From an uncultured Acidobacteriota bacterium (GTDB lineage Bacteria > Acidobacteriota > Blastocatellia > RBC074): a stretch of 64,000 nucleotides of DNA. A program made the translations under genes and the position numbers. The DNA lies in the NCBI GenBank assembly GCA_963796275.1, contig CAWCKY010000003.1, positions 1,280,001 to 1,344,000 on the forward strand, given 5' to 3'. How positions within the stretch are numbered: position 1 is the first letter of the stretch; every line of letters begins with the position of its first letter. Shown one piece after another: positions 17 to 15,012 of the stretch. The notes below the pieces were generated by a model, which did not search any database, was not told the origin of the DNA, and worked only from the letters and a program-made list of their open reading frames with translations.

Positions 17-1030
17 TTGGGTTACAAAATTCTGCTTGCGGATGACAGCGTTACAGTACAAAAGATCATCACGCTGACTTTTTCAGATGAAGGCGCAGAG
101 GTTTCGACAGTTAATAATGGTGAGGAAGCCATTACACGTTTGCGTTATATTCGACCTGACCTGGTGATGGCAGACGTATCGATCCCGGGGAAGGATGGCT
201 ACGATATTTGCGAATTCGTCAAAACGCACCCTGACTTGAAGGGCACGCCGGTTATCCTGCTCGTTCCGGCATTTGAGCCGTACGACGAGGAGAGAGCCCG
301 CCGGGCGGGGGCCGATTACCATCTCACGAAACCCTTTCAATCCATCCGGACGCTGATCTCGACCGTCAAAAACCTGATCGAATCGAGTGGGCGAAGGATT
401 ACTCGGACCGATACGGGAGAATTTCAACCCCCGAAAAATAGAAATAACCGCCTCTCCGAACGCGGCATGTTCGAAGCCGGTGACCTCCGCGGCCCCACAG
501 ATGCTCATAATGAGCGACAATCGTTGAATATCGAAGGCGACTGGCTCAGCGACAGTTCAGATGGCGATGTTCTGCACGTGTCGAACGGGGAAGATAGCCG
601 ATCGGCTGCGGCAGGCTCACGCCGAGCAGCAGTAGAAAGAACAGCTCCATCGCGCGGCGCATTCGACGAAGACCTGGATCACGTCCTCGAGCTTGACGAC
701 GTTCTGACCGAACTCTGGAGCGATACTGCGGCTCCGGGCATCGAGTCCGGACGCCGCGCAACTGCTACTGAAGCAGGTGGCATTACGACGCTGGTTGCCG
801 CCGCCGATACCGGAGTTCAGGGAGTGTCGCTGGCGCTAGGCCAAAGTTCGATCGACGAGATCGCCGATCGCGTTGTGGCGAAGGTAATGGAGAGGTTGTC
901 GGTTCTCTTGAACGAACAATTGTCCAGCCGTATTGCAGGCGAAGTCATCGAGATCATCAAACGACAGCAGGCGGCAGGGAAAGCTGCCTATCATGAAGCT
1001 GATTCGCTACTTGAATTGGACGAAGTTTGA
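17..1030 (+). CDS. Response regulator, RomR-like (receiver + disordered acidic linker + C-terminal helix)
   Basis: ILLADDS, PDLVMAD and ADYHLTKPF receiver motifs; GGAGG before the TTG start; directly upstream of valS. Confidence 0.8.
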
Positions 1031-1163
1031 GTCCGAAGAGAATAGCGAGAAAAAAAACAGTACCGCGAACAGTAGCGAGCGAGTCTTGATCGATGATAGA
1101 TTGAAGGTTCGCTCGCTTACTGCCCGCGGTACTGATTTTTTTCTCTCCCCGTCGTTGAATATT

Positions 1164-3932
1164 ATGGAAATTGCGAAGAGATACGAACCTAAAGAGGTCG
1201 AAGGGCGATGGTACCCATTTTGGGAACGCGAACGCTTCTTCGCGCCTGAGCCAGTCTCCAGGACGTCCGATGCTCCCATCTTCTCGATGGTTATCCCGCC
1301 GCCGAATGTGACTGGTTCTCTGCACATGGGCCATGCGCTCAATCACACGCTGCAAGACGTATTGGCGCGGTGGCGGCGGATGAGCGGCGACCGCGTGTTG
1401 TGGCTGCCCGGCTGCGACCACGCTGGAATCGCTACGCAGATGGTAGTAGAGAAGCAACTCGACAAGGAAGGAATAAAACGCCAGGACTTGGGACGCGAGA
1501 AATTTGTCGAGCGCGTCTGGCAGTGGAAAGAGCACTCGGGCGGCACGATTCAAAGGCAGATGCGCCTCCTCGGCGATTCGGTGGACTGGGCGCGCGAACG
1601 CTACACCATGGATGAAGGTCTCTCTAACGCCGTCAAAGAGGTCTTCGTGAGATTTCATGACGAGGGATTGATCTATCGCGGCGAGTATATGGTCAATTGG
1701 TCGCCAGGGTTGCAGACGGCGGTCTCCGATCTCGAAGTGGAGATGAAACCCATCAATGGCAAGCTCTACCATATCGCCTATCCGGTCGACCGAAATGTGA
1801 CAGAACGCGTGGAAGGCTTGGTTGATGCCTATGCGGCGGCGGATAAAGCCAGATCGGGTCTGCTCAGCACAGATGCCGGCGATTTCGTTATCGTCGTGAC
1901 GACTCGCCCCGAAACGATGCTGGGCGACACGGCGGTCGCGCTCAATCCCGCCGATGCGCAGGCGGGCAGCCGGTATGCTGGAATCGCGGGCCGGAATGCC
2001 GTGCTTCCCCTGGTCGGGCGGGTGTTGCCCTTCATCGAAGATGAAGTTGTTGAGAAGGATTTCGGCACCGGTTTGGTCAAAGTCACGCCGGCGCACGATC
2101 CCACCGATTTCGCTATGGGTAAGCGGCATGGACTCCCGTTCATTCAGGTCATCGGTAAAGATGCGAAGATGACCGATGCGGTGCCCGAAAAATTTCGCGG
2201 GATGGACCGCTACCAGGCTCGCAAAGCGGTGGCCGCCGATCTCGAGGAATTGGGTTTATTGCTCAAGGTCGAGGATTACACGCATAATGTCGGCCATTGC
2301 CAGCGCAGCCAGGTGGCGATCGAGCCATTGATTTCAACACAGTGGTTTCTGCGGATGAAATCGCTGGCGGAGCCGGCGATTGCCGCGGTGCGCGACGGGC
2401 GCACGAAGTTTGTGCCGGAGAACATGGCCAAGATCTATTTCAACTGGCTGGAGAACATCCAGGATTGGTGCATCTCGCGCCAGCTGTGGTGGGGTCATCG
2501 CATACCGGCGTGGTATACGCCGGCGGGCGAAATCGTCGTCGCGCGCGACGAGGAGGAAGCCCGGGGACGTCTCGAGTCGCGCGGCATCGATCCGAAGGTC
2601 GAGTTACGCGCAGAAGAAGACGTGCTCGACACCTGGTTTTCGTCGCAGCTCTGGCCGTTCTCAACCCTGGGCTGGCCCGAGGAGACCGAAGACCTCAAGA
2701 CCTTCTATCCGACTTCTGTTCTGATCACCGGCTTCGACATCATCTTCTTCTGGGTCGCGCGAATGATGATGATGGGTCTGAACTTTATGGGCGATGTCCC
2801 ATTTCGTACGGTATACATCAACGCCCTGGTGCTCGACCCTGAAGGGAAGAAGATGTCGAAGACCACCGGCAATGTGGTCGATCCGCTCGATGTCTTCGAT
2901 AAATATGGTACGGATGCCGCGCGCTTTATGCTGACCGCGGCTTCCACCGCAGGGCTCGCGCTTACGCTGCAGGAATCCAAGCTGGAATCGGCGCGGAACT
3001 TCGCCAACAAGATCTGGAACGCCTCGCGGTTCGTCCTTCTCAATTGCGACGACGTGCTGAGCGAGAAAGTGCCGATCGATTGGGAGACGCAGCTCGCTCC
3101 GCCTGAATTGGCCGACCTCTGGATTTTGAGCCGCCTCAACCGAACCGCGCTGGAGGTCAACAATGCATTGGCAGAATACCGCTTTCACGAGGCGGCGGCG
3201 GAACTCTATCACTACTTCTGGGATGATTTTTGCGATTGGTATATCGAATTGTCGAAGCCATTTGTGACGGCAAAGGGAGAGTCGCCGCAGAATGTGGCGG
3301 TCAAGCGCAGGATAATCTACGTGCTCGAGCGCAGTTTGAGGCTTTTACATCCGATCATGCCCTTCATTACCGAAGAGATCTGGCAGAGGCTCCCGCACAA
3401 GGGCGACACGATCACACTGGCTGAATTCGTATCGCATAATCCGGCGAACATCGATGAGCGCGCCGAACGCGAGATGAATCTCGTGATCGAGATCGTGACC
3501 AGACTACGGAGCATCCGTGCTGAGTTCAACATTCCGCCATCCACGCGGCTGCACGCGCAGATTATGCCGGCGAACGAGAGCGCGCGGAAAGTGATCGACC
3601 GGATGGGAGATCACATTAAGCGTCTGGCGTGGATCGAACAACTAGATCTCGTCGAGACGTTACCAGCGCGGCGCGGCTATGCGCGGGATGTCACGAGCGG
3701 CGCAGCGCTTGCAGTGCCGCTTGAAGGCTTGATAGATTTTGAGAATGAGCGGGCCCGTCTCGAGAGAGAATTGGCCAAGCTGGTCGCGGAACGGGAAGGC
3801 CTGGAGAAACGGCTGGCGAATCAAGATTTCATCAATCGCGCTGCTCCCGATGTTGTCGAGCGCACCCGCGATCGCGCGGTCGAACTCGAGAGCAGAATCG
3901 CAAAGATTCGATCAATGATCGAAACAATTTGA
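1164..3932 (+). CDS. valS: Valyl-tRNA synthetase
   Basis: [31 protein letters not shown]-terminal coiled coil; start moved to ATG 1164 (MEIAKRY). Confidence 0.97.
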
Positions 3933-4069
3933 TCGGAAAGCGGCAGGAATTTTCGCCAAACACAAACCGCAAAGAAATCAAAATTATTCCATTTGTACTG
4001 CATGTTTCTTTATAAGTTTGTTGTGGTGACCTTTCCTCTACAGTTCGCAGTCCGAAGTCCGCAATACGT

Positions 4070-4936
4070 ATGATCAATCCACTCGACCTCGAACTGGTCT
4101 ATGAAATAGTGAACGCGGCATTGGATGAAGACCTGGGGCGTGGTGACATCACGTCACGCGCGGTAGTACGCCGGGGAGTGAAAGCGCGGGGCAGCTTTAT
4201 CGCCAAGCAGGATTTTATTCTAGCGGGCCTCGAGGTCGCCGACGCAGTATTCACTACATTCGACCCTTATCTACAAATCGAATCGTCAGTCGGCGATGGC
4301 GAGGAAATAAAAGCGGGCAAAGTCTTTGCCCGAACATCGGGCGATGCCCAGATCTTACTGGCTGCCGAACGCGTCGCGCTCAATTTTCTGCAGCGTCTCT
4401 CGGGTATTGCAACTATGACGCGGGCTTATGTCGATGCGATTGCAGGGACGGGAGCGCGGATTGTTGATACGCGCAAAACAACTCCCGGTCTCCGTGTTCT
4501 CGAAAAATATGCGGTGACCGTGGGTTGCGGTCACAATCACCGGCTCGGCCTGGATGATGGCGTACTGATCAAGGATAATCATCTGGCGATGGCGGGAAGC
4601 ATTACAGAAGCCCTCCGGCGCGCGCGTGAAACGGCCGGTCATCTACACAAGATCGAGGTCGAAGTTGCAACGCTCGATCAGGTTCGAGAAGCGTTGGAAG
4701 TAAATGCGGATATATTACTGTTGGACAACATGCCTCCGGAGATGGTGAGGGATGCCGTCGAAATCGTCCGAAAAAACGAATCGAACGAGCGGCGCACTTT
4801 GACCGAAGCATCGGGTGGCATAAGTCTCGTAAACGTGCGCGCGTATGCGGAAGCTGGTGTCGATATGATATCCATCGGAGCGCTGACACACTCAGCGCCG
4901 GCGGTAGATATAAGTTTCAAAATAAAACCCGCATAA
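4070..4936 (+). CDS. nadC: Nicotinate-nucleotide pyrophosphorylase (QPRTase)
   Basis: DTRKTTPGLR, HRLGLDD, LIKDNH, EASGGI. Confidence 0.96.
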   Translation: MINPLDLELVYEIVNAALDEDLGRGDITSRAVVRRGVKARGSFIAKQDFILAGLEVADAVFTTFDPYLQIESSVGDGEEIKAGKVFARTSGDAQILLAAERVALNFLQRLSGIATMTRAYVDAIAGTGARIVDTRKTTPGLRVLEKYAVTVGCGHNHRLGLDDGVLIKDNHLAMAGSITEALRRARETAGHLHKIEVEVATLDQVREALEVNADILLLDNMPPEMVRDAVEIVRKNESNERRTLTEASGGISLVNVRAYAEAGVDMISIGALTHSAPAVDISFKIKPA

Positions 4937-6722: not shown

Positions 6723-7958
6723 ATGGCGACAGACGCGGACGTATTTGCCTATGAGCTCGCGCCCGGCGAAGTTCACGAAGTGACCATTGAAAAGCTCGTG
6801 TATGGAGGTGATGGACTGGCGCGCATCGGGACCCAGGCTGTTTTTGTGCCCTTTGCTGCTGCCGGTGACAAGTTGCGGGTCCGCGTCACAGACGTCGAAC
6901 GGAATTACGCGCGCGCCGTCATCGAAGAGATCGTCAGCCCATCGGAAACCCGCCGTACGCCTCCCTGCGTTTACTACGGCAACTGCGGCGGTTGCCAGCT
7001 TCAGCATTTAAATTATCAGGCGCAACTTGAAGCGAAGGTTTCTTTCGTGCGCGAATCGCTGCGGCGCATCGGCAACATCGAATGGGCTGGCGAGATCGGC
7101 GTTCGCGCGGCGTCGGAGTTCGGCTATCGTTCGCGTGCGGAGATCAAAGTCTCCCGAAGCGAAGCGGACGAGCCGCTCATCGGCTATTTTCGCTCAGGCA
7201 CTCAGGCCGTCTGCGAAATAACAGATTGTTTGATCCTGTCGCCGGCCGCTAATCGCGAATTGCAGCGGTTGCATTCCGAACCCTCGCTCATACCGAATGA
7301 TGCGACGCGGGTCTACCTGACGGTCGGCGATGACGAAGTGATCGTCACTCCGGCCACCGGCGAAAATGGGCGGAGCGATGAGATCGATGCGCTCGGGACG
7401 GCTTACCAGAGGATTGCCGGCACGAATTATGGTTTCGGTGTCAGATCATTTTTTCAAGGTAATCGGCTTTTGGTGGAAGATCTAATTCACGCGGCGATCG
7501 GCGATGCGCACGGGGCATTTGCGGTCGATCTATATGCCGGAGTCGGTCTCTTCAGCCTGCAACTGGCCCGGAATTTCGAACAGGTATGCGCGGTCGAAGG
7601 CAATCGAGCTGCGGCTAATCATGGTATGGAGAATGTGCGAGCGAATGGCCTGAATAATGTGCGATACGAACCGATATCGGTCGAGGCGTGGTTGAAATAC
7701 AAATCATCGGAAGTGCCGAGGCCCGATCTGGTCTTGCTCGATCCGCCGCGCTCCGGCGCCGGCCCGCAGATAATCGAGCGGGTTGTGGCGCTTGCACCTC
7801 CCTCGGTGACCTATGTTTCCTGCGATCCGGCGACTCTGGCGCGCGACCTGCGAATGATGCTCGATTTCAACTATCGTATCGATTCGATCACGGTTGTCGA
7901 TATGTTTCCTCAGACTTTTCACGTTGAAACAGTTGTTCATCTTAGTATTTCAGTATAA
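6723..7958 (+). CDS. RNA uracil-5-methyltransferase (RlmD/TrmA family)
   Basis: TRAM domain, CVYYGNCGGC, VDLYAGVGLF, DPPRSG, YVSCDPATLARD, DMFPQTFHVE. Confidence 0.92.
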   Translation: MATDADVFAYELAPGEVHEVTIEKLVYGGDGLARIGTQAVFVPFAAAGDKLRVRVTDVERNYARAVIEEIVSPSETRRTPPCVYYGNCGGCQLQHLNYQAQLEAKVSFVRESLRRIGNIEWAGEIGVRAASEFGYRSRAEIKVSRSEADEPLIGYFRSGTQAVCEITDCLILSPAANRELQRLHSEPSLIPNDATRVYLTVGDDEVIVTPATGENGRSDEIDALGTAYQRIAGTNYGFGVRSFFQGNRLLVEDLIHAAIGDAHGAFAVDLYAGVGLFSLQLARNFEQVCAVEGNRAAANHGMENVRANGLNNVRYEPISVEAWLKYKSSEVPRPDLVLLDPPRSGAGPQIIERVVALAPPSVTYVSCDPATLARDLRMMLDFNYRIDSITVVDMFPQTFHVETVVHLSISV

Positions 7959-8259
7959 GCCGGAGCGTATCCTCGCCTCGCAATTCGGCTTCCCAGGAAT
8001 CATTGCAAAAAGCACGCGAGAGGTTGGGCTGCGACAACCTTCCGACGGAGGGGTAAAGCAGTAGCCCGGGTTGGAGCCTGCCGCTGCGATCCCAAACACC
8101 TGGCAAGATTCTATATCCACTCCAAATAAGGTAACGGTTCACGTGGGTGCACGAAATATGGCAGGCAGCGCTTGGACAAAGGCGTCCAACCAAACTATGC
8201 TTTGCGACGATGTGGCGCGCCTCAATATCACAACGCAAGACTGGGAACGCACTCCAGCG

Positions 8260-8477
8260 GGATTCTGCTGGCGAATTCAGAAAATGAAATTATCGGCTCT
8301 TAGCTCCGGAGAAGCGTTATGTTTATAGATCATGGCAAGTAAATATCTCCAGGTCCGGAGCGACATATGATGCCGTTTATATGCCGCTCCTCCGGAGCTG
8401 GGGCACTATTACGAAAAAATCTATAAACGTATCGCGCCTCTGGCGCTCCCGGATAAACGAATTCGCCAGCAGAATCC
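8260..8477. mobile_element. MITE-like insertion, 218 bp
   Basis: Perfect 19-bp TIR GGATTCTGCTGGCGAATTC (8260-8278 / 8459-8477); AGCG duplicated on both sides; extra 12-bp duplication at 8482-8493. Confidence 0.75.
8302..8447. repeat. REP/REPIN-like long imperfect hairpin
   Basis: AGCTCCGGAGAAGCGTTATGTTTATAGA (8302-8329) pairs with 8420-8447 (22/28); second inner arm pair around 8347-8403. Confidence 0.65.
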
Positions 8478-8717
8478 AGCGCAGAATCCAGCGGGAGTGC
8501 GCATAGTTTTGCTGTCGCTTCAGCAACAAGGGTGGTTACTGCTGATTCGCTGCACCGCGTATGAAAGCAGGTTACCCAGATAGATGACTTGAAAACCGAG
8601 ATGGCCGAGTTACGCGAGCGGCTGAGACAGAGTTCACACGTTGCCGGTGTTGGCGGAAGTGACAGTCTTTGGCAAGCAATCCCTACACGCCTAGAAACAA
8701 CGGGAGGGTTGAAGCTC

Positions 8718-11342
8718 ATGAACAAACCTGCTCGATTTATTTTGGGAATCGCCTTCTTTGCCCTGCTGCTGGTCTATAGTGCGGCCAGCTTCTACGTCTG
8801 GCTTTACCTGCCCGGAAGCGATGCGGGGTTTTACTGGTCGGGCGAGGTTGGCGAGTTTCAGGTCAGACAGATCGACCCACAAGGCCATGCCCAAGAGTTG
8901 CGCCCGGGCGACAAAATTATCGCCATCAACGGCGTGAATGCTGCGGAGCACGCGGGCATACTGTATGACTCGTATCGCCTGGCGCCCGGTTCGCCTTATT
9001 CGATGACCGTCGAGCGCAACAGCCGGGAAATGACTTTCGCCTGGCAAACCATTCCACGTCGGCGCGGCTCTTTTCCGTGGGATAAGCTGGTTTCGCTTTT
9101 ATCTTGGCTCTCCGGGCTGATCGTGTTGTCGATCAAAGCGGAGGATCGACGGGCGTGGCTATTGGCTTTGATGCTAGGCTGCTTTTCGACGTTAGTGAAC
9201 TACGGCGGTTGGCAGGGAGAGATAGCGACCAAGTGGCTTGCGCTGGCGGTCGCTTTAGCGCAAATCGGCGGGCTTTTCTCAGCCCCGCTGCTGTTTCATT
9301 TATTTCTCTACTTTCCTCAACCTTCACCCTTGTTGCGGTGCTGGCCGAAGTTGACGCGGTGGCTCTACGCGCCGCTCTGCCTATTTGTACTGCCGACTCA
9401 TGGCGTCCTACGGTTGCCTCTTGAATGGTCTACCTCAATCGTCAGTTGGCCGCCGGCCCGTTGGTTGTGGGAGCACGGGTTGCTGCTGGCCGCTGATCTT
9501 TCGCTGCTGGGCTATCTTTTAGCGGCGCTCGTTTGCTTGTGGCTGAGTTATCGTACGGCGGATACGGCGGGGCGGCGGCGTTTGCGGGTCGTGATGTGGG
9601 GCAGCCTGATCGGCTTCGGCAGTCTAATTCCAGTGCTCGTGATGGAGGTTACAAAAACGCAGGAGAAGTGGAATACCATCTGGAACTGGTTGTGGTTTTC
9701 GATGCTCTTTACGCTGCCGCTCGTCCCTCTCAGCTTCGCTTATGCCATCGTCCGCCATCGCGTCATTCCGATCAGCCTGATGATTCGCCGTGGTGTGCGT
9801 TATCTGCTGGTCTCGCGTGGTTCGATTTTGCTGGCGCTGCTGTTCGTCGGCCTCATCGTGGCGGCGCTGTTGGCGCTGCTGTTCAAGTATCTGCGCCCAT
9901 CGGCCTTGACCATCGGCCTGGTTTCGGCTGCCGAAGGCATCGCCGCGTGGCAGTTGGCGCGCTGGTTGCACCGGCGCTATCTCGCGCCGGTGATTGACCG
10001 TCATTTCTTCCGGCAGGCTTACGATGCGCAGCACATCGTAGCCGAGTTGTCAGAATCGCTGCGTACGACGACCGAGATTCCGCGCCTGCTCGGATCGGTG
10101 GCGAACAAGCTGCAAGCGGCGCTGCAAACCGAAAACGTGGTGATCTTTTTGCGCGATGGACAGACCGGCGACTACCGCAGCGCTTATGCTTGCGAATACA
10201 ACCGGGCGGAGGGCCACGCGGTCAATTGTCCGCGCGCAAACCTCCTGCCGCGCGATGCCGCGACGCTGGCGCAGCTTGCGCAAACGGGAGACGCACTCGA
10301 ACTCGACGGCGGCAACCCGGCGTTCGATTTGGCGGTGACCAACGGCCATTCGCGGCTGACAAACGAAGAACGGAAAACGCTGCTCGAACTGAAATCCACG
10401 CTGCTGTTGCCGTTCAAAACCAAAGACGCCATGCCGGGCATCGTCGCGCTCGGCTCGCGGCTGGGCGATCTGCCGTTTTCCGGCGAAGATAAACGCTTGT
10501 TGCAATCGGTCGGCGCCTCGGCGTCGCTCGCGCTCGAAAACGCGCAACTGGTCGAACGCATGATCGCCGAAGCGCGCCGCCACCAGGAGATCGAGGCCGA
10601 AAACGAACAGCGCGCGCGGGAGTTGGAAGAAGCGCGCCAGTTGCAGCTTTCGATGCTGCCGAAGAGCGTGCCGCAATTGCCGCACATCGAGATCGCGGCG
10701 TTGATGAAGACCGCGACCGAGGTCGGCGGCGATTACTATGATTTTCACGTCGGCGAGGACGGCACGTTGACGATCGCCATCGGCGACGCGACCGGGCACG
10801 GCTTGAAAGCGGGCACGGTGGTAGCGGCGACGAAGGGACTGTTCAAGCATCTGGCCGGGCAAGCCGATCTGGTGGCCATGCTCGCGCAAACCTCGCGCGC
10901 GTTGAAGCAGATGAATCTGCGCTCGTTGTTTATGGCGCTGACGCTGGTCAAATTGAATGGCGATCACTTGCAATGCAGCGTAGCGGGGATGCCGCCGATT
11001 CTGATTTATCGCGCGGCGACAAAGACCATCGAAGAGATTCCCTTGCGCGGCGCGCCGCTGGGCGGTTTGTCGAGTTACGACTATCGCCAGGTCGAACTGA
11101 CGCTGGCGGTAAACGACGTGGCGCTGCTACTGAGCGATGGTTTGCCGGAGCGGTTCAATGCGGCGGGTGAAATGTTCGGCTACGAACGGATGCAGGAATT
11201 GTTGCTTGCGCACGCCTCCGCAGCGCCGCAAATCATTCTGGAACGGATGCTGCAGGCAAGCGATGAATGGGCGGCAGGCAAACTGGCCGACGACGACATG
11301 ACCTTCGTCGCGCTGCGGCGCACGGCCACCGGCAGTTCGTGA
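8718..11342 (+). CDS. Membrane signalling phosphatase: PDZ + multi-TM + GAF + SpoIIE/PP2C
   Basis: LRPGDKIIAING (PDZ), many TM helices, GAF (ALALENAQL), EVGGDYYD, IGDATGHG, SDGLPE, DDMT; GGGAGG before ATG 8718. Confidence 0.92.
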   Translation: MNKPARFILGIAFFALLLVYSAASFYVWLYLPGSDAGFYWSGEVGEFQVRQIDPQGHAQELRPGDKIIAINGVNAAEHAGILYDSYRLAPGSPYSMTVERNSREMTFAWQTIPRRRGSFPWDKLVSLLSWLSGLIVLSIKAEDRRAWLLALMLGCFSTLVNYGGWQGEIATKWLALAVALAQIGGLFSAPLLFHLFLYFPQPSPLLRCWPKLTRWLYAPLCLFVLPTHGVLRLPLEWSTSIVSWPPARWLWEHGLLLAADLSLLGYLLAALVCLWLSYRTADTAGRRRLRVVMWGSLIGFGSLIPVLVMEVTKTQEKWNTIWNWLWFSMLFTLPLVPLSFAYAIVRHRVIPISLMIRRGVRYLLVSRGSILLALLFVGLIVAALLALLFKYLRPSALTIGLVSAAEGIAAWQLARWLHRRYLAPVIDRHFFRQAYDAQHIVAELSESLRTTTEIPRLLGSVANKLQAALQTENVVIFLRDGQTGDYRSAYACEYNRAEGHAVNCPRANLLPRDAATLAQLAQTGDALELDGGNPAFDLAVTNGHSRLTNEERKTLLELKSTLLLPFKTKDAMPGIVALGSRLGDLPFSGEDKRLLQSVGASASLALENAQLVERMIAEARRHQEIEAENEQRARELEEARQLQLSMLPKSVPQLPHIEIAALMKTATEVGGDYYDFHVGEDGTLTIAIGDATGHGLKAGTVVAATKGLFKHLAGQADLVAMLAQTSRALKQMNLRSLFMALTLVKLNGDHLQCSVAGMPPILIYRAATKTIEEIPLRGAPLGGLSSYDYRQVELTLAVNDVALLLSDGLPERFNAAGEMFGYERMQELLLAHASAAPQIILERMLQASDEWAAGKLADDDMTFVALRRTATGSS

Positions 11343-11764
11343 GCGCACCGTGCATCTGGATGCGGCTGCCAGAAGGCGAGTTGGACGCCCGGTGACGCCT
11401 GTTGACCCGCTCAGTTTGTTCGGCTCCGATATGAGCGCGTTCGAGTCTTTGGCATTTCCTGATTTTTCCGATCACTGCAGTTGGCGATAATGATAGAGCT
11501 CTGACGATTGTTGTTCAGCTCGCTGTTGCGCGTATTGCGCTATCAACTCCCTGATGCAATGAAATGAATTGCATATCTGAACGGTTACCAAATAAGGCGC
11601 TGCCATACCATTCCTCTATCGGGGCAATGAGCAAAAAGATACGAAAATGACAGGATTGAGATGCCAGATATTGTTTGATGAGTTATTATCTTCGATAGTC
11701 GTGCCACCCCTATATCTTTAGAGGCCATCTAATAAAGGCCATCTAGAAGAATTGGGGGATCAAA

Positions 11765-12217
11765 ATGCCATCAACTCACGTGAGCCTTCACATTCACGTT
11801 ATTTTCTGTACAAAAAATTGTCATCCTTATCTTGAAGCCGAATGGCGCAGCCGGCTTCACGCTTATCTCGCCGGCGCCATCAGAAATGTTGAAGCAGTGC
11901 CGGTAGCCATTGGCGGGACTGCGGATCACGTCCATCTCTTGTTGGGCCTGAAAGCTACGCATCGGATTGCCGACGTGTTGCGAGAGATCAAGCGAGGATC
12001 GTCTAACTGGTTGAATGATGCTCTGGATATTTGCGGATTCTCCTGGCAGAACGGATATGGAGCATTTTCGGTGAGCCCCTCGGCGCTCGATTTAGTCGCG
12101 AGATACATCGCACAACAAGAGCTCCATCATAGACGGCGGTCTTTTCAGGAAGAGTATCTAGAGTTTCTTAACAAGAGCGGTGTTGTATTTGACGAGCGTT
12201 ATATTTGGGATGAATAA
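11765..12217 (+). mobile_element. tnpA: Y1 HUH transposase (IS200/IS605 TnpA or RAYT-like)
   Basis: HIHVIFCTK, DHVHLL (HUH), WQNGYGAFSVS, YIAQQELHH; no tnpB adjacent. Confidence 0.9.
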
Positions 12218-12306: not shown

Positions 12307-15012
12307 ATGTCATCTCGGCGTTTGAGCTTCACGCGGCTGAGCCTCATTCAACAGCCGCTGCTCTTCGTGGTTATCTCGTTTGTTGGCGGCCTGCTGTTCG
12401 CCGCAGGAGATCGAATCTCCATTCGTCACTGGCTGATTTTTTGCGCGACCGCCTGGGTTGCCGCTTCGATAATGCTCCGGCTGAATGTGAACGGTCTGGT
12501 TGCTATTGCATTTTCGATCTGCGGTTGTTTCGCTGCCGGAGGCGCATTGTGGGCGATAAACGAGGAAGCAATCGGCGAGAACAGCGTCCGGAAGCTTTTC
12601 GAACGCGGCCAATTGAGAATCGATGAGCCGGTCGAAATCAGCGGAGTATTGAACGCCGCTCCGGAACTCGCGCCTGATCGAATCTATCTGAGCATAGCGG
12701 TTGAACAGGTAGCGTCGCTCGGACGCGAACTGCATTCGAGCGGGGCCGTCTCTATTATAATTCCATTTAGAGATCAGGAGTCGCGGCTCGAATATGATTC
12801 ATTAGCGCTAAATTACGGGGCGCGCGTGCGATTACTGGTTCACTTGAGCAACCGGAGCGGTTACCGGAATCCCGGCGCACCGGATTTCGACCAATTGCTC
12901 GAATATCGCGGCTATGATGCGACCGGATGGGTCAAGAGCCCGCTGCTCATCGAGCGGTTGGGGCGAGGAGAGCCCAACCCGCTGCTCGCGAGGCTTTATC
13001 TGGTGCGGGCGAGGGCGCTGTCAGTCATCCTCAGGCATTTCAAACAGCCCGCATCCGGAATTCTCGCCGCCGCGCTCTTCGGTAACCGTTACTTTCTCGC
13101 GCGCGATACGGCGGAGATATTTCGTGCGGGCGGAACCTTTCATCTGCTCGTGATATCCGGCCTCCACGTGGCGATGATAGCCATCGTCGCATTGTGGCTG
13201 GCGAAGTATCTGAGCAATTCGCGTTTAATCCAATATGCGGCGGTTATCACGCTGATGTGGGCTTATGCGTTGATGGTGGGAGCGCAGCCAGCGGTGACTC
13301 GGTCGGCTGTGATGCTTACCATCGTTTTCATCGGGCGGTCGATCTTTCGCAAATCTCCGGGCGCCAACGCCCTGGCCGCGTCAGCCATCGCCCTGCTTTG
13401 CTGGCAGCCGCGGGACCTGTTCAACCCGGGCTTCCAACTTTCGTTTCTGACTGTGTTGATGATCGTCGTTTTCACCGGCCCACTATATTCGCGCTTTAAA
13501 CAGATTGGCGAATGGCGGCCCATGGCTTTGACGCCTTATCCGCCACGCGTTCCAGTTTTCATTCGGAAGATTGCCGAAATATTGTTCTGGAATGAAGCGG
13601 GATTCCGCGAAGAGATGAAGGCGGAACGCATTCGTTACCGGTTGGACAAGGCCCGGATCGCTTGTCGGTTGAACGAGATGCGATTGCAGAGGCCATTAGC
13701 GTGGATCACAGTAACTATCTTTACGACAACCGGCGTACAGATCGGCCTTTTGCCGCTGATGGTCGCGCAATTCCATCGCGTATCGATCGTCGCGCCGGTG
13801 ACGAACGTCATCGAAGGGGCGCTTATCTTCGCCTTGATGATTGCCGGGACCATCTATCTGTTGATTCATGCGATCGTAGGAGGGACGGCTCAAAAACTTG
13901 CGGGAGCGGTGGACGCGCTCGGAGCGCTGTCTGTCGAATCATGCGAGCCTTTGCTGGCATTAAGCTGGGCGAATCTGCGCGTGCCTGATTTGCACCCGAC
14001 GGCGTTGGTCTTTGCCCTTTTCTTTACCGCCGTTCTTATATTGATCATTGTCATCAACGGATGGAATCCATTCCTGCGGGGCGACGAGCCGGATACTCGC
14101 AGACGAATGATCGCAAGGCGGGTGCTCGCCATCCCCTCATCGTTTACGATCGGTATTCTAAGTTGCCTCTTGATTTTTCACCCATTCGCACATCGCTACG
14201 AGCGCGGTCGATTGAGCGTGACTTTCCTGGATGTTGGGCAGGGCGATGCGATGTTGATCGCTTTTCCCAAAGGCTCGCTGATGATGCTGGATGCCGGCGG
14301 CCAACCGAATATAGTGGCAGGTAAAGTCAATGGCGATGCCGAGGATTTATTCGTAGAAGACCGTATTGGAATGGCGGAGGCTGCCGTGATGCCCTATCTG
14401 TGGCATCGCGGAATAAAGAAGTTGGACTGGATAGTGGCAAGTCATGGCGACGCGGACCACGTCGAGGGATTCGCCGAGATAATTCGCAGCTTCGATATAG
14501 GAATCGCTCTCGGCGAGGCGAAACAATTTGAACAGGCAGGCTTTCCCGTGCGAATTGCCCGAGGGGGCAATTGGTTCGAGATCGATGGTGTGCGGATGGA
14601 AGTTCTGTCACCTCTCGATGAAACGCGCGAGCCCGGTATGTCCGGCAACAATAGATCGCTCGTTATAAAAGCCACTTACGGTAATCGCAGTTTTTTACTG
14701 ACAGGTGACATCGAGAGAGAGGCCGAAGGCATGCTTGTGGCTTCCGGTCTAGATCTCGCCGCCGATGTTTTGAAAGTCGCCCATCACGGTTCGCGAACAT
14801 CCACGACTCGAGAATTTCTGAAAAAGGTCTGCCCCAGTCATGCCGTTATATCGGTATCAAATCCGAGTCCTTACGGCCATCCGCATGCGGATGTGGTGGA
14901 GCGATTGCGCGAGACCGGCGCGTACGTCTGGCAAACTTCTGCTTGCGGCGCCATCACGATATCGACCGACGGCCAGGACCTGCAAACTGGAACATTCGTC
15001 AAATGCGAATGA
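12307..15012 (+). CDS. comEC: Competence protein ComEC/Rec2
   Basis: NPGAPDF, HLLVISGLHV, GFQLSF, FLDVGQGD, HGDADHVEG, LKVAHHGS, YGHPH. Confidence 0.95.
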   Translation: MSSRRLSFTRLSLIQQPLLFVVISFVGGLLFAAGDRISIRHWLIFCATAWVAASIMLRLNVNGLVAIAFSICGCFAAGGALWAINEEAIGENSVRKLFERGQLRIDEPVEISGVLNAAPELAPDRIYLSIAVEQVASLGRELHSSGAVSIIIPFRDQESRLEYDSLALNYGARVRLLVHLSNRSGYRNPGAPDFDQLLEYRGYDATGWVKSPLLIERLGRGEPNPLLARLYLVRARALSVILRHFKQPASGILAAALFGNRYFLARDTAEIFRAGGTFHLLVISGLHVAMIAIVALWLAKYLSNSRLIQYAAVITLMWAYALMVGAQPAVTRSAVMLTIVFIGRSIFRKSPGANALAASAIALLCWQPRDLFNPGFQLSFLTVLMIVVFTGPLYSRFKQIGEWRPMALTPYPPRVPVFIRKIAEILFWNEAGFREEMKAERIRYRLDKARIACRLNEMRLQRPLAWITVTIFTTTGVQIGLLPLMVAQFHRVSIVAPVTNVIEGALIFALMIAGTIYLLIHAIVGGTAQKLAGAVDALGALSVESCEPLLALSWANLRVPDLHPTALVFALFFTAVLILIIVINGWNPFLRGDEPDTRRRMIARRVLAIPSSFTIGILSCLLIFHPFAHRYERGRLSVTFLDVGQGDAMLIAFPKGSLMMLDAGGQPNIVAGKVNGDAEDLFVEDRIGMAEAAVMPYLWHRGIKKLDWIVASHGDADHVEGFAEIIRSFDIGIALGEAKQFEQAGFPVRIARGGNWFEIDGVRMEVLSPLDETREPGMSGNNRSLVIKATYGNRSFLLTGDIEREAEGMLVASGLDLAADVLKVAHHGSRTSTTREFLKKVCPSHAVISVSNPSPYGHPHADVVERLRETGAYVWQTSACGAITISTDGQDLQTGTFVKCE

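Follow-up and report, generated by a model that had tools for sequence, protein, structure and literature searches.

A probable IS66-derived mobile insertion cassette with a sensor phosphatase gene as passenger in an uncultured acidobacterium

Insertion sequences (ISs) of the IS66 family that carry passenger genes are already described. According to a report on them, ISPa75-fosZ in Pseudomonas is such a transporter IS (tIS66), 7 of the 25 Pseudomonas IS66 entries in ISfinder carry passengers, and the inverted repeats listed for the family are GTAAGCGTCC... and GTAACCGTCC... (PMC12888890). Mobile insertion cassettes (MICs), which are IS-ended, transposase-less elements with passenger genes, likewise form an established concept (PMC3129680). 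The DNA analyzed here is a 64,000-nucleotide stretch (the window; positions 1,280,001 to 1,344,000 of contig CAWCKY010000003.1) from an uncultured Acidobacteriota bacterium (Blastocatellia; RBC074), in which positions 8131-11588 are, with a probability of roughly 0.9, a decayed, transposase-deleted derivative (an MIC) of a transporter IS of the IS66 family with a single transposase open reading frame (ORF). Its passenger is an intact gene for a membrane-bound sensor phosphatase. Passenger-carrying IS66 elements and MICs being known in print, this is another such mobile cassette, and it leaves knowledge of IS66 transposition or of passenger-carrying ISs unchanged. The features of the element are as follows, with sister copies denoting its relatives in other sequences, TM a transmembrane segment, and MITE a miniature inverted-repeat transposable element.

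8123-8130: left target-site duplication CAAATAAG, identical to the 8-mer at 11589-11596
8131-8153, plus strand: IRL, left terminal inverted repeat GTAACGGTTCACGTGGGTGCACG, compared with sister copies
8218-8260, plus strand: tnpC N-terminal remnant, part 1 (RLNITTQDWERTPA...), cut by the MITE (tblastn)
8261-8476: MITE of 216 bp with ends GATTCTGCTGGCGAATTC and GAATTCGCCAGCAGAATC, inside the tnpC remnant
8489-8637, plus strand: tnpC N-terminal remnant, part 2, frameshifted, ending ...AELRERLRQSS (tblastn)
8638-8695, plus strand: last ~18 codons of a 101-aa membrane/coiled-coil ORF (alignment; tblastn)
8703-8709, plus strand: likely ribosome-binding site GGGAGGG
8718-11342, plus strand: passenger gene, intact, for an 874-aa TM1-PDZ-multi-TM-GAF-SpoIIE (PP2C) sensor phosphatase (Pfam)
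11343-11577, plus strand: non-coding 3' tail of the cargo segment
11578-11588, minus strand: IRR, right terminal inverted repeat TGAACGGTTAC, identical in six sister contigs
11589-11596: right target-site duplication CAAATAAG, identical to the 8-mer at 8123-8130

The element resembles tIS66 in the location of the passenger between the DDE gene and IRR, in GTAA termini, in target duplications at multiple sites, and in the occurrence of remnant copies (PMC12888890). ISPa75 has the classic three genes (tnpA, tnpB, and the DDE gene), whereas this lineage has one transposase ORF and compact 1.6-kb relatives; tIS66 cargo is, for example, a resistance gene, whereas here it is a 2.6-kb sensor phosphatase gene together with a small membrane ORF. 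In further contrast to tIS66, every cargo-bearing copy seen here lacks part or all of tnpC, and the host is a soil acidobacterial lineage. MICs are matched in the IS-type inverted repeats, the lack of a transposase (no ORF with a transposase domain lies within 8131-11588), the single coding passenger, the target duplication, and the probable movement of a transposase-less sister form. MICs derived from IS231 occur in the Bacillus cereus group; the present element differs from MICs in that it would derive from an IS66-family tIS. No IS66-derived MIC and no phosphatase passenger were found in a narrow literature search.

The element spans 3458 bp between the left end GTAACGGTTCA (8131-8141) and the right end TGAACGGTTAC, both ends starting with GTAAC, and the exact 8-bp direct repeat that the original prediction had placed immediately outside inverted ends was observed at its borders. 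The reverse complement of the right end, GTAACCGTTCA, matches the left end at 10 of 11 positions, which makes the inverted repeat imperfect, and the two ends show no further likeness beyond 11 nt. The direct repeat can also be read as 10 bp, CCAAATAAGG, if end bases are counted as shared. These repeats are too short to rank among the top families in a general repeat search of the window, and neither extended end (17-19 nt) has a second copy in the genome.

The assignment is carried by the sister copies. A scan of metagenomes gave 31 loci, and at 22 of them (L040-L056 and L058-L062) the DNA matches that of the element in the window at 80-97%. The right end is identical in L040, L041, L043, L044, L046, and L029; similarity to the window stops at 11589 in L029, L041, and L044 and at 11591 in L043, and sequencing run X1 contains loose ends at 11588. 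At the left, L040, L045, L052, and L053 share one IRL, GTAACCGTTCAGCTGGGTGCACG, from which the IRL of the window differs at positions 6, 12, and 13, and over its first 12 nt the sister IRL agrees fully with the ends of bona fide IS66 elements. The flanks are unrelated among copies, except for one site common to L029, L041, and L044, and at least seven sites are represented (the window, L040, L041/L044/L029, L043, L046, L045, and L052). L029, from a metagenome-assembled genome titled Pyrinomonadaceae (G041), is 95.5% identical to window positions 10359-11589 over 1239 nt, and the likeness halts exactly at the right end of the element, with a different flank beyond. Because identity reaches 95.5% in the element but no more than 64-67% between chromosomal DNA of G041 and the window (67-80% for the same-genus genome G001), the comparison points to a recent transfer of the element between distant hosts. 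L040 is a complete copy (815-4403) with a 9-bp duplication, CTCCAGGCT. Its flanks are contiguous in G079:C229 and G077:C555, which contain a single CTCCAGGCT or CTCCAAGCT, and in both genomes the alignments of the two flanks have exactly 9 bp in common; the L040 insertion is read as a clean transposition with a matching empty site. An empty site for the L029/L041 insertion was not found in the source genome (G000), which was also the only one of the 87 family genomes matched by the IRL 31-mer with up to three mismatches. The whole element gave no megablast match in a plasmid collection, and the exact 23-nt IRL gave no match in viral contigs. As a separate observation, a 93-bp stretch of the L029 flank (L029 1245-1336) recurs with 89% identity at C4:80675-80767 of the source genome, adjoining another dispersed repeat (C4:80313-80672, many copies); the stretch could be a hotspot or belong to another mobile element.

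The IS66 nature of the lineage is indicated by relatives with the same termini. In the source genome, an IS66 element of 2582 bp at C6:13462-16043 (locus L014) is bounded on both sides by GTAACCGTTCAGGTG, and its frameshifted tnpC has DUF6444, zf-IS66 (N-terminus), and DDE_Tnp_IS66 matches. Between this tnpC and the right end lies a 323-aa BNR/Sortilin-like passenger ORF. This copy showed no target duplication, and a partial copy of the element, 99.1% identical, lies at C7:868812-870359. Searching the family genomes with the N-terminus of sister copy L052 revealed compact relatives. L072 (G092) is an intact element of 1587 bp with a single 513-aa ORF, ends GTAACCGTTCAGTTGG, and an 8-bp duplication, TTTCATAT; L077 (G003) has ends GTAAGCGTTCAGTTGGGTA, a one-base variant terminus, GTAAGCGTTCAG, and an 8-bp duplication, CGATGAAT. 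The terminus GTAACCGTTCAG is common to the element lineage, the C6 element, and the compact G092 relative. GTAA termini were found in the window, G000, and G092 (in the one-base variant in G003), and duplications of 8 bp in the window, L072, and L077, in line with the known IS66 features from which the original prediction had argued. An autonomous IS66 with the same termini, for which it had proposed a search, thus exists in the form of the intact compact relatives, but not among the copies in the source genome, where all seven DDE_Tnp_IS66 matches, at four loci, are partial or frameshifted; this genome, 94.7% complete, yielded no intact IS66 transposase.

The classic IS66 arrangement, with tnpA and tnpB upstream of the DDE gene, was not found. 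Since the remnant in the window begins close to IRL (87 nt, compared with an offset of 92 nt in the C6 element) and the intact L072 has one ORF, the lineage is assigned to a single-ORF subgroup and not to classic IS66. ISfinder has a single-ORF subgroup of the family named ISBst12, to which L072 and L077 may belong; they resemble that type in their single ORF, the lack of tnpA and tnpB, GTAA termini, and 8-bp duplications. By its sequences, the lineage is thus regarded as an IS66 type that has one ORF, GTAA at its termini, and target duplications of 8 bp. A DDE_Tnp_IS66 match was obtained for the lineage (L041 3063-3569, 3.1e-9) and not for the window copy.

The structure of the ancestor may be pieced together from the sister copies. 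In L040 and L052, tnpC aa 5-168 are fused to the last 60 aa, followed by the cargo; L041 and L051 retain the middle and C-terminal parts of tnpC, followed by the 101-aa ORF, the phosphatase gene, and IRR, and the 3' part of tnpC in L041 is the source of the DDE_Tnp_IS66 score given above. L047, L054, and L056 retain only the tnpC C-terminus, and L045, L050, and L053 show further distinct deletion joints, which makes at least five different joints among the copies. The tnpC C-terminus in L040/L052 and L041/L051/L047 has 72-78% aa identity to that of the C6 element. Because the 3' end of tnpC immediately precedes the cargo in sister copies, the cargo is considered to have lain downstream of tnpC as a passenger, tnpC being later deleted independently at least five times. 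The ancestor would then have had the order IRL, tnpC (~510 aa), 101-aa membrane ORF, PDZ/TM/GAF/SpoIIE gene, ~250-bp tail, and IRR. An IS66 DDE transposase recognizing GTAACCGTTCAG termini would have inserted this unit between a methyltransferase gene and the ComEC region, producing the 8-bp duplication CAAATAAG. An internal deletion (joint 8637|8638) would have removed tnpC from about codon 78 to its stop codon and, with it, most of the small ORF, and the 216-bp MITE would have landed in the remnant after the deletion. The L041 copy lacks the left part of the element, and its shortened tnpC adjoins a gene for a 958-aa Ser/Thr kinase with PD40 beta-propeller repeats (L041 103-2979).

In the window copy, the decayed transposase N-terminus noticed by the original prediction proved to be collinear with the N-terminus of IS66 TnpC. 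A tblastn search of the window with the N-terminus of the C6 TnpC gave three collinear segments over aa 9-77.

8218-8259: TnpC aa 9-22
8494-8580: TnpC aa 23-51, 38% identity, E 3e-5
8550-8636: TnpC aa 49-77, 41% identity, after the frameshift

At the DNA level, window positions 8131-8260 are 89-92% identical to L040, L045, and L052, and part 2 of the remnant is ~80% identical to L040 and L052; the N-terminus of L052 scores DUF6444 at 1.9e-16 in Pfam. The MITE that cuts the remnant ends in 18-nt inverted repeats, and a 12-bp tandem duplication lies behind it at 8477-8488. Its family has nine long copies in the source genome, including that of the window, the other eight being 75-95% identical and four of these eight having 5-bp target duplications, and 37 genome matches at E 1e-5 or better. 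The MITE is absent from the sister copies aligned, and run X1 contains a joint from 8252 to 8487 that spans it. With the exception of the MITE, the non-coding parts of the element show no nucleotide similarity elsewhere in the genome. The deletion joint 8637|8638, which joins tnpC codon ~77 to the final ~18 codons of the small ORF, is unique to the window among the copies aligned; in most fuller sister copies, likeness to the window resumes at 8638, and tblastn of the small ORF of L041 against the window gave 83% over 18 aa. Four sequencing runs all show an extra A after 8688 that is missing in the window. Because this 1-nt deletion, private to the window copy, makes the frame continuous between the fused remnant and the phosphatase gene, a 917-aa ORF is called at 8589-11342, which is an artefactual fusion of the transposase remnant, the small-ORF tail, and the real 874-aa gene. 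Annotation pipelines may report a wrong start for the phosphatase gene through such a fusion ORF.

The passenger is the intact PDZ-TM-GAF-SpoIIE gene that had been described from the letters alone, its true extent being 8718-11342. Pfam assigned SpoIIE (E 1.3e-33, profile positions 2-191 of 192), GAF, and PDZ_2, and along the protein TM1 comes first, then PDZ, about five or six hydrophobic segments, GAF, and finally PP2C. The motifs GDATGHG, DG, and DDMT, which are taken to be the metal-binding Asp motifs of the SpoIIE-type domain, are present. The product is thus predicted, by domain and motifs, to be a SpoIIE-type serine phosphatase, and its matches in the PDB include Rv1364c (3ke6) and a serine phosphatase (6k4e), both at about E 1e-10. 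The five copies compared (the window, L040, L041, L043, and L045) all have open frames of 873-877 aa, and their pairwise ratios of nonsynonymous to synonymous substitution rates (dN/dS) are 0.44-0.55 at dS 0.05-0.11, which indicates that the cargo has probably been under moderate constraint. Expression of the gene probably relies on its own ribosome-binding site, with the product serving the host as a sensor phosphatase; by analogy with RsbU/SpoIIE-type phosphatases, this product probably dephosphorylates a partner-switching protein upon an envelope signal. In every fuller copy, the gene is preceded by the small ORF (L041 3673-3978; also in L043 and L051), whose 101-aa product has one membrane segment and a coiled coil; it matched no Pfam family and has no homologue beside the chromosomal phosphatase homologues. 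The 3' tail varies, with 11426-11538 missing from L040 and L043 and nearly all of it from L046. Different cargo on other copies, which the original prediction had suggested looking for, was not encountered: all copies of the element seen bear the same phosphatase cargo, and the BNR-repeat protein occurs only on the related IS66 in the source genome.

The site of insertion was compared by searching the DNA of the region against 40 relatives, 24 of them genomes of the same family; no conclusion draws on one genome, G004, which is flagged as unpublished. The features around the element are the following.

6723-7958, plus strand: left flanking gene, TRAM and U5 RNA methyltransferase, outside the element (Pfam)
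11765-12217: IS200-like Y1 transposase gene, between the element and ComEC (Pfam Y1_Tnp, 3.3e-21)
12307-15012, plus strand: right flanking gene, ComEC, outside the element (Pfam)

Of the 24 same-family genomes, 15 have their methyltransferase and ComEC matches on a single contig, the aligned blocks being 109-1121 bp apart, compared with an interval of ~4.6 kb in the window; in the remaining ones, except G022, the two genes are on separate contigs or one of them is unmatched. In the same-genus genome G001, one 25-nt CCCCGGCCA-type repeat terminates the methyltransferase contig as well as the ComEC contig, and neither contains element sequence. Because those 15 relatives leave no room for the element and the G001 contigs lack it, adjacency of the methyltransferase gene to ComEC is taken as the ancestral state. 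Relatives with the phosphatase gene at this place and no IS ends, which would have spoken against a mobile element, were not seen, since the relatives lack the gene at the locus. The proposed empty site was thereby obtained in part, as a locus without the gene in kin and as an exact empty site for L040, but not at base level for the window. The Y1 transposase gene, possibly of the REP-associated (repetitive extragenic palindrome) type, is likewise missing from the methyltransferase-ComEC interval in relatives, and its upstream DNA is unique in the genome. G022 (C311:15735-19486) has ~3 kb extra between the two genes, and the site may attract other insertions. None of the sequencing runs contained more than 0.24 of the sampled words; a low-depth contig of run X4 (depth 2.6) joins 7953 to 11634 and may represent a relative without the element, and it was not used as evidence.

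Mobilization in trans, which the original prediction had proposed for this cassette, is supported for a sister form. Over 1577 nt, L040 and L052 align without gaps at 97.7% identity and have the same two internal deletions. Because the same deletions thus occur at two sites with unrelated flanks, this deletion form is considered to have moved after losing its transposase, with transposase supplied in trans. For the window copy itself, whose joint is unique among the copies seen, arrival in an already deleted state and decay in place are about equally likely. Under decay in place, which stands at even odds, the copy would have arrived as an autonomous element with intact tnpC and cargo, produced its own 8-bp duplication, and only then lost tnpC, at its present site. 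This course of events is favored by the joint 8637|8638, found in no other aligned copy, by the further private damage (the MITE, the 12-bp duplication, and the 1-nt deletion near 8688), by the partial or frameshifted state of seven of seven IS66 DDE matches in its own genome, and by the single occurrence of the exact IRL in that genome. However, the sister forms L040 and L052 evidently moved after deletion, so trans mobilization probably happens in the lineage. Decay in place bears only on the part of the proposal concerning mobilization in trans and leaves the identity of the element as a transposase-deleted IS66 derivative untouched. Because IRL is mutated, the MITE is present, and intact IS66 transposase was not found in the genome, the evidence suggests that the window cassette is now immobile in this genome, a fossil.

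The replacement of the transposase body by cargo, an internal substitution that would have created the cassette directly and that the original prediction had favored, is very improbable. The window cargo does start ~80 bp after the remnant with no 3' part of tnpC left, but the C-terminus of tnpC still immediately precedes this cargo in L040/L052 and L041/L051/L047, and the deletion joints fit repeated deletion from an ancestor with tnpC followed by cargo. The related IS66 in the same genome has its passenger downstream of tnpC as well, and the published tIS66 passengers lie downstream of the DDE gene (PMC12888890).

Several points weigh against the identification of positions 8131-11588 as a transposase-deleted IS66 transporter. 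The repeat configuration alone is weak evidence: a scan for an 8-bp direct repeat with an inverted repeat of at least 10/11 at a spacing of 0.5-6 kb found this site alone in the real window and 23 matches in 200 first-order Markov shuffles of it, i.e., 0.115 expected per random window. The L040 duplication is 9 bp, confirmed by the empty sites, and not the canonical 8 bp. Because IRR matches IRL and the termini of the compact relatives over only ~12-13 nt, compared with at least 16 nt in the compact relatives, it may be a recruited surrogate end and not the original one. The best tblastn segment of the remnant reaches only E 3e-5, in a search space of 3.8 kb, and Pfam gave only weak coiled-coil matches (E 0.036 or higher) for the three remnant fragments of the window alone, so the identity of the remnant rests on a chain through the sister copies. 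A full-length copy, with intact tnpC and cargo, was not found among the 31 loci from metagenomes, 11 loci from genomes, and 87 genomes of the family, and the full ancestor was inferred by combining different decayed copies. A base-level empty site for the window's own insertion was not found, the kin (67-80% identity) being too diverged for alignment of intergenic DNA, and dN/dS near 0.5 is high for a strongly constrained gene. The feature is nevertheless more than chance because of the comparative evidence from other sequences. A native phosphatase gene bracketed by coincidence by a short direct and a short inverted repeat has next to no probability: the configuration and the two end 11-mers (6 and 8 occurrences in the 9.46-Mb genome) are near chance frequency, but the gene is absent from the locus in kin, in four contigs the likeness to copies at other sites ends no more than 1-3 nt from 11588, the left end is common to four contigs with other flanks, and a sister copy has an exact empty site.

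Given the identification as an IS66-derived cassette, a large signaling gene, and not a resistance gene, would travel on an IS66-type element between distantly related soil bacteria, and transposase-less derivatives would keep moving. This could be one of the ways in which PP2C sensor phosphatases have expanded in large acidobacterial genomes and come to have a patchy distribution there. A more speculative and rather unlikely extension is that the IS66 lineage is a dedicated shuttle of a sensor-phosphatase module (the small ORF and the PDZ-TM-GAF-PP2C gene) between genera of soil Acidobacteriota, in which selection acts on the cargo, tnpC is repeatedly lost without damage to the ends or the phosphatase, and movement continues with transposase from compact relatives. 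In a bolder version, the phosphatase may feed back on the element or on host stress signaling and thereby favor its own spread. The chromosomal homologues of the phosphatase in L002-L005, at which no IS66 end motif was found, have 61-79% aa identity to it by segment and ~67% over the full length in L003 and L004, and a paralogue at C7:834301 of the source genome has 64.5% identity.

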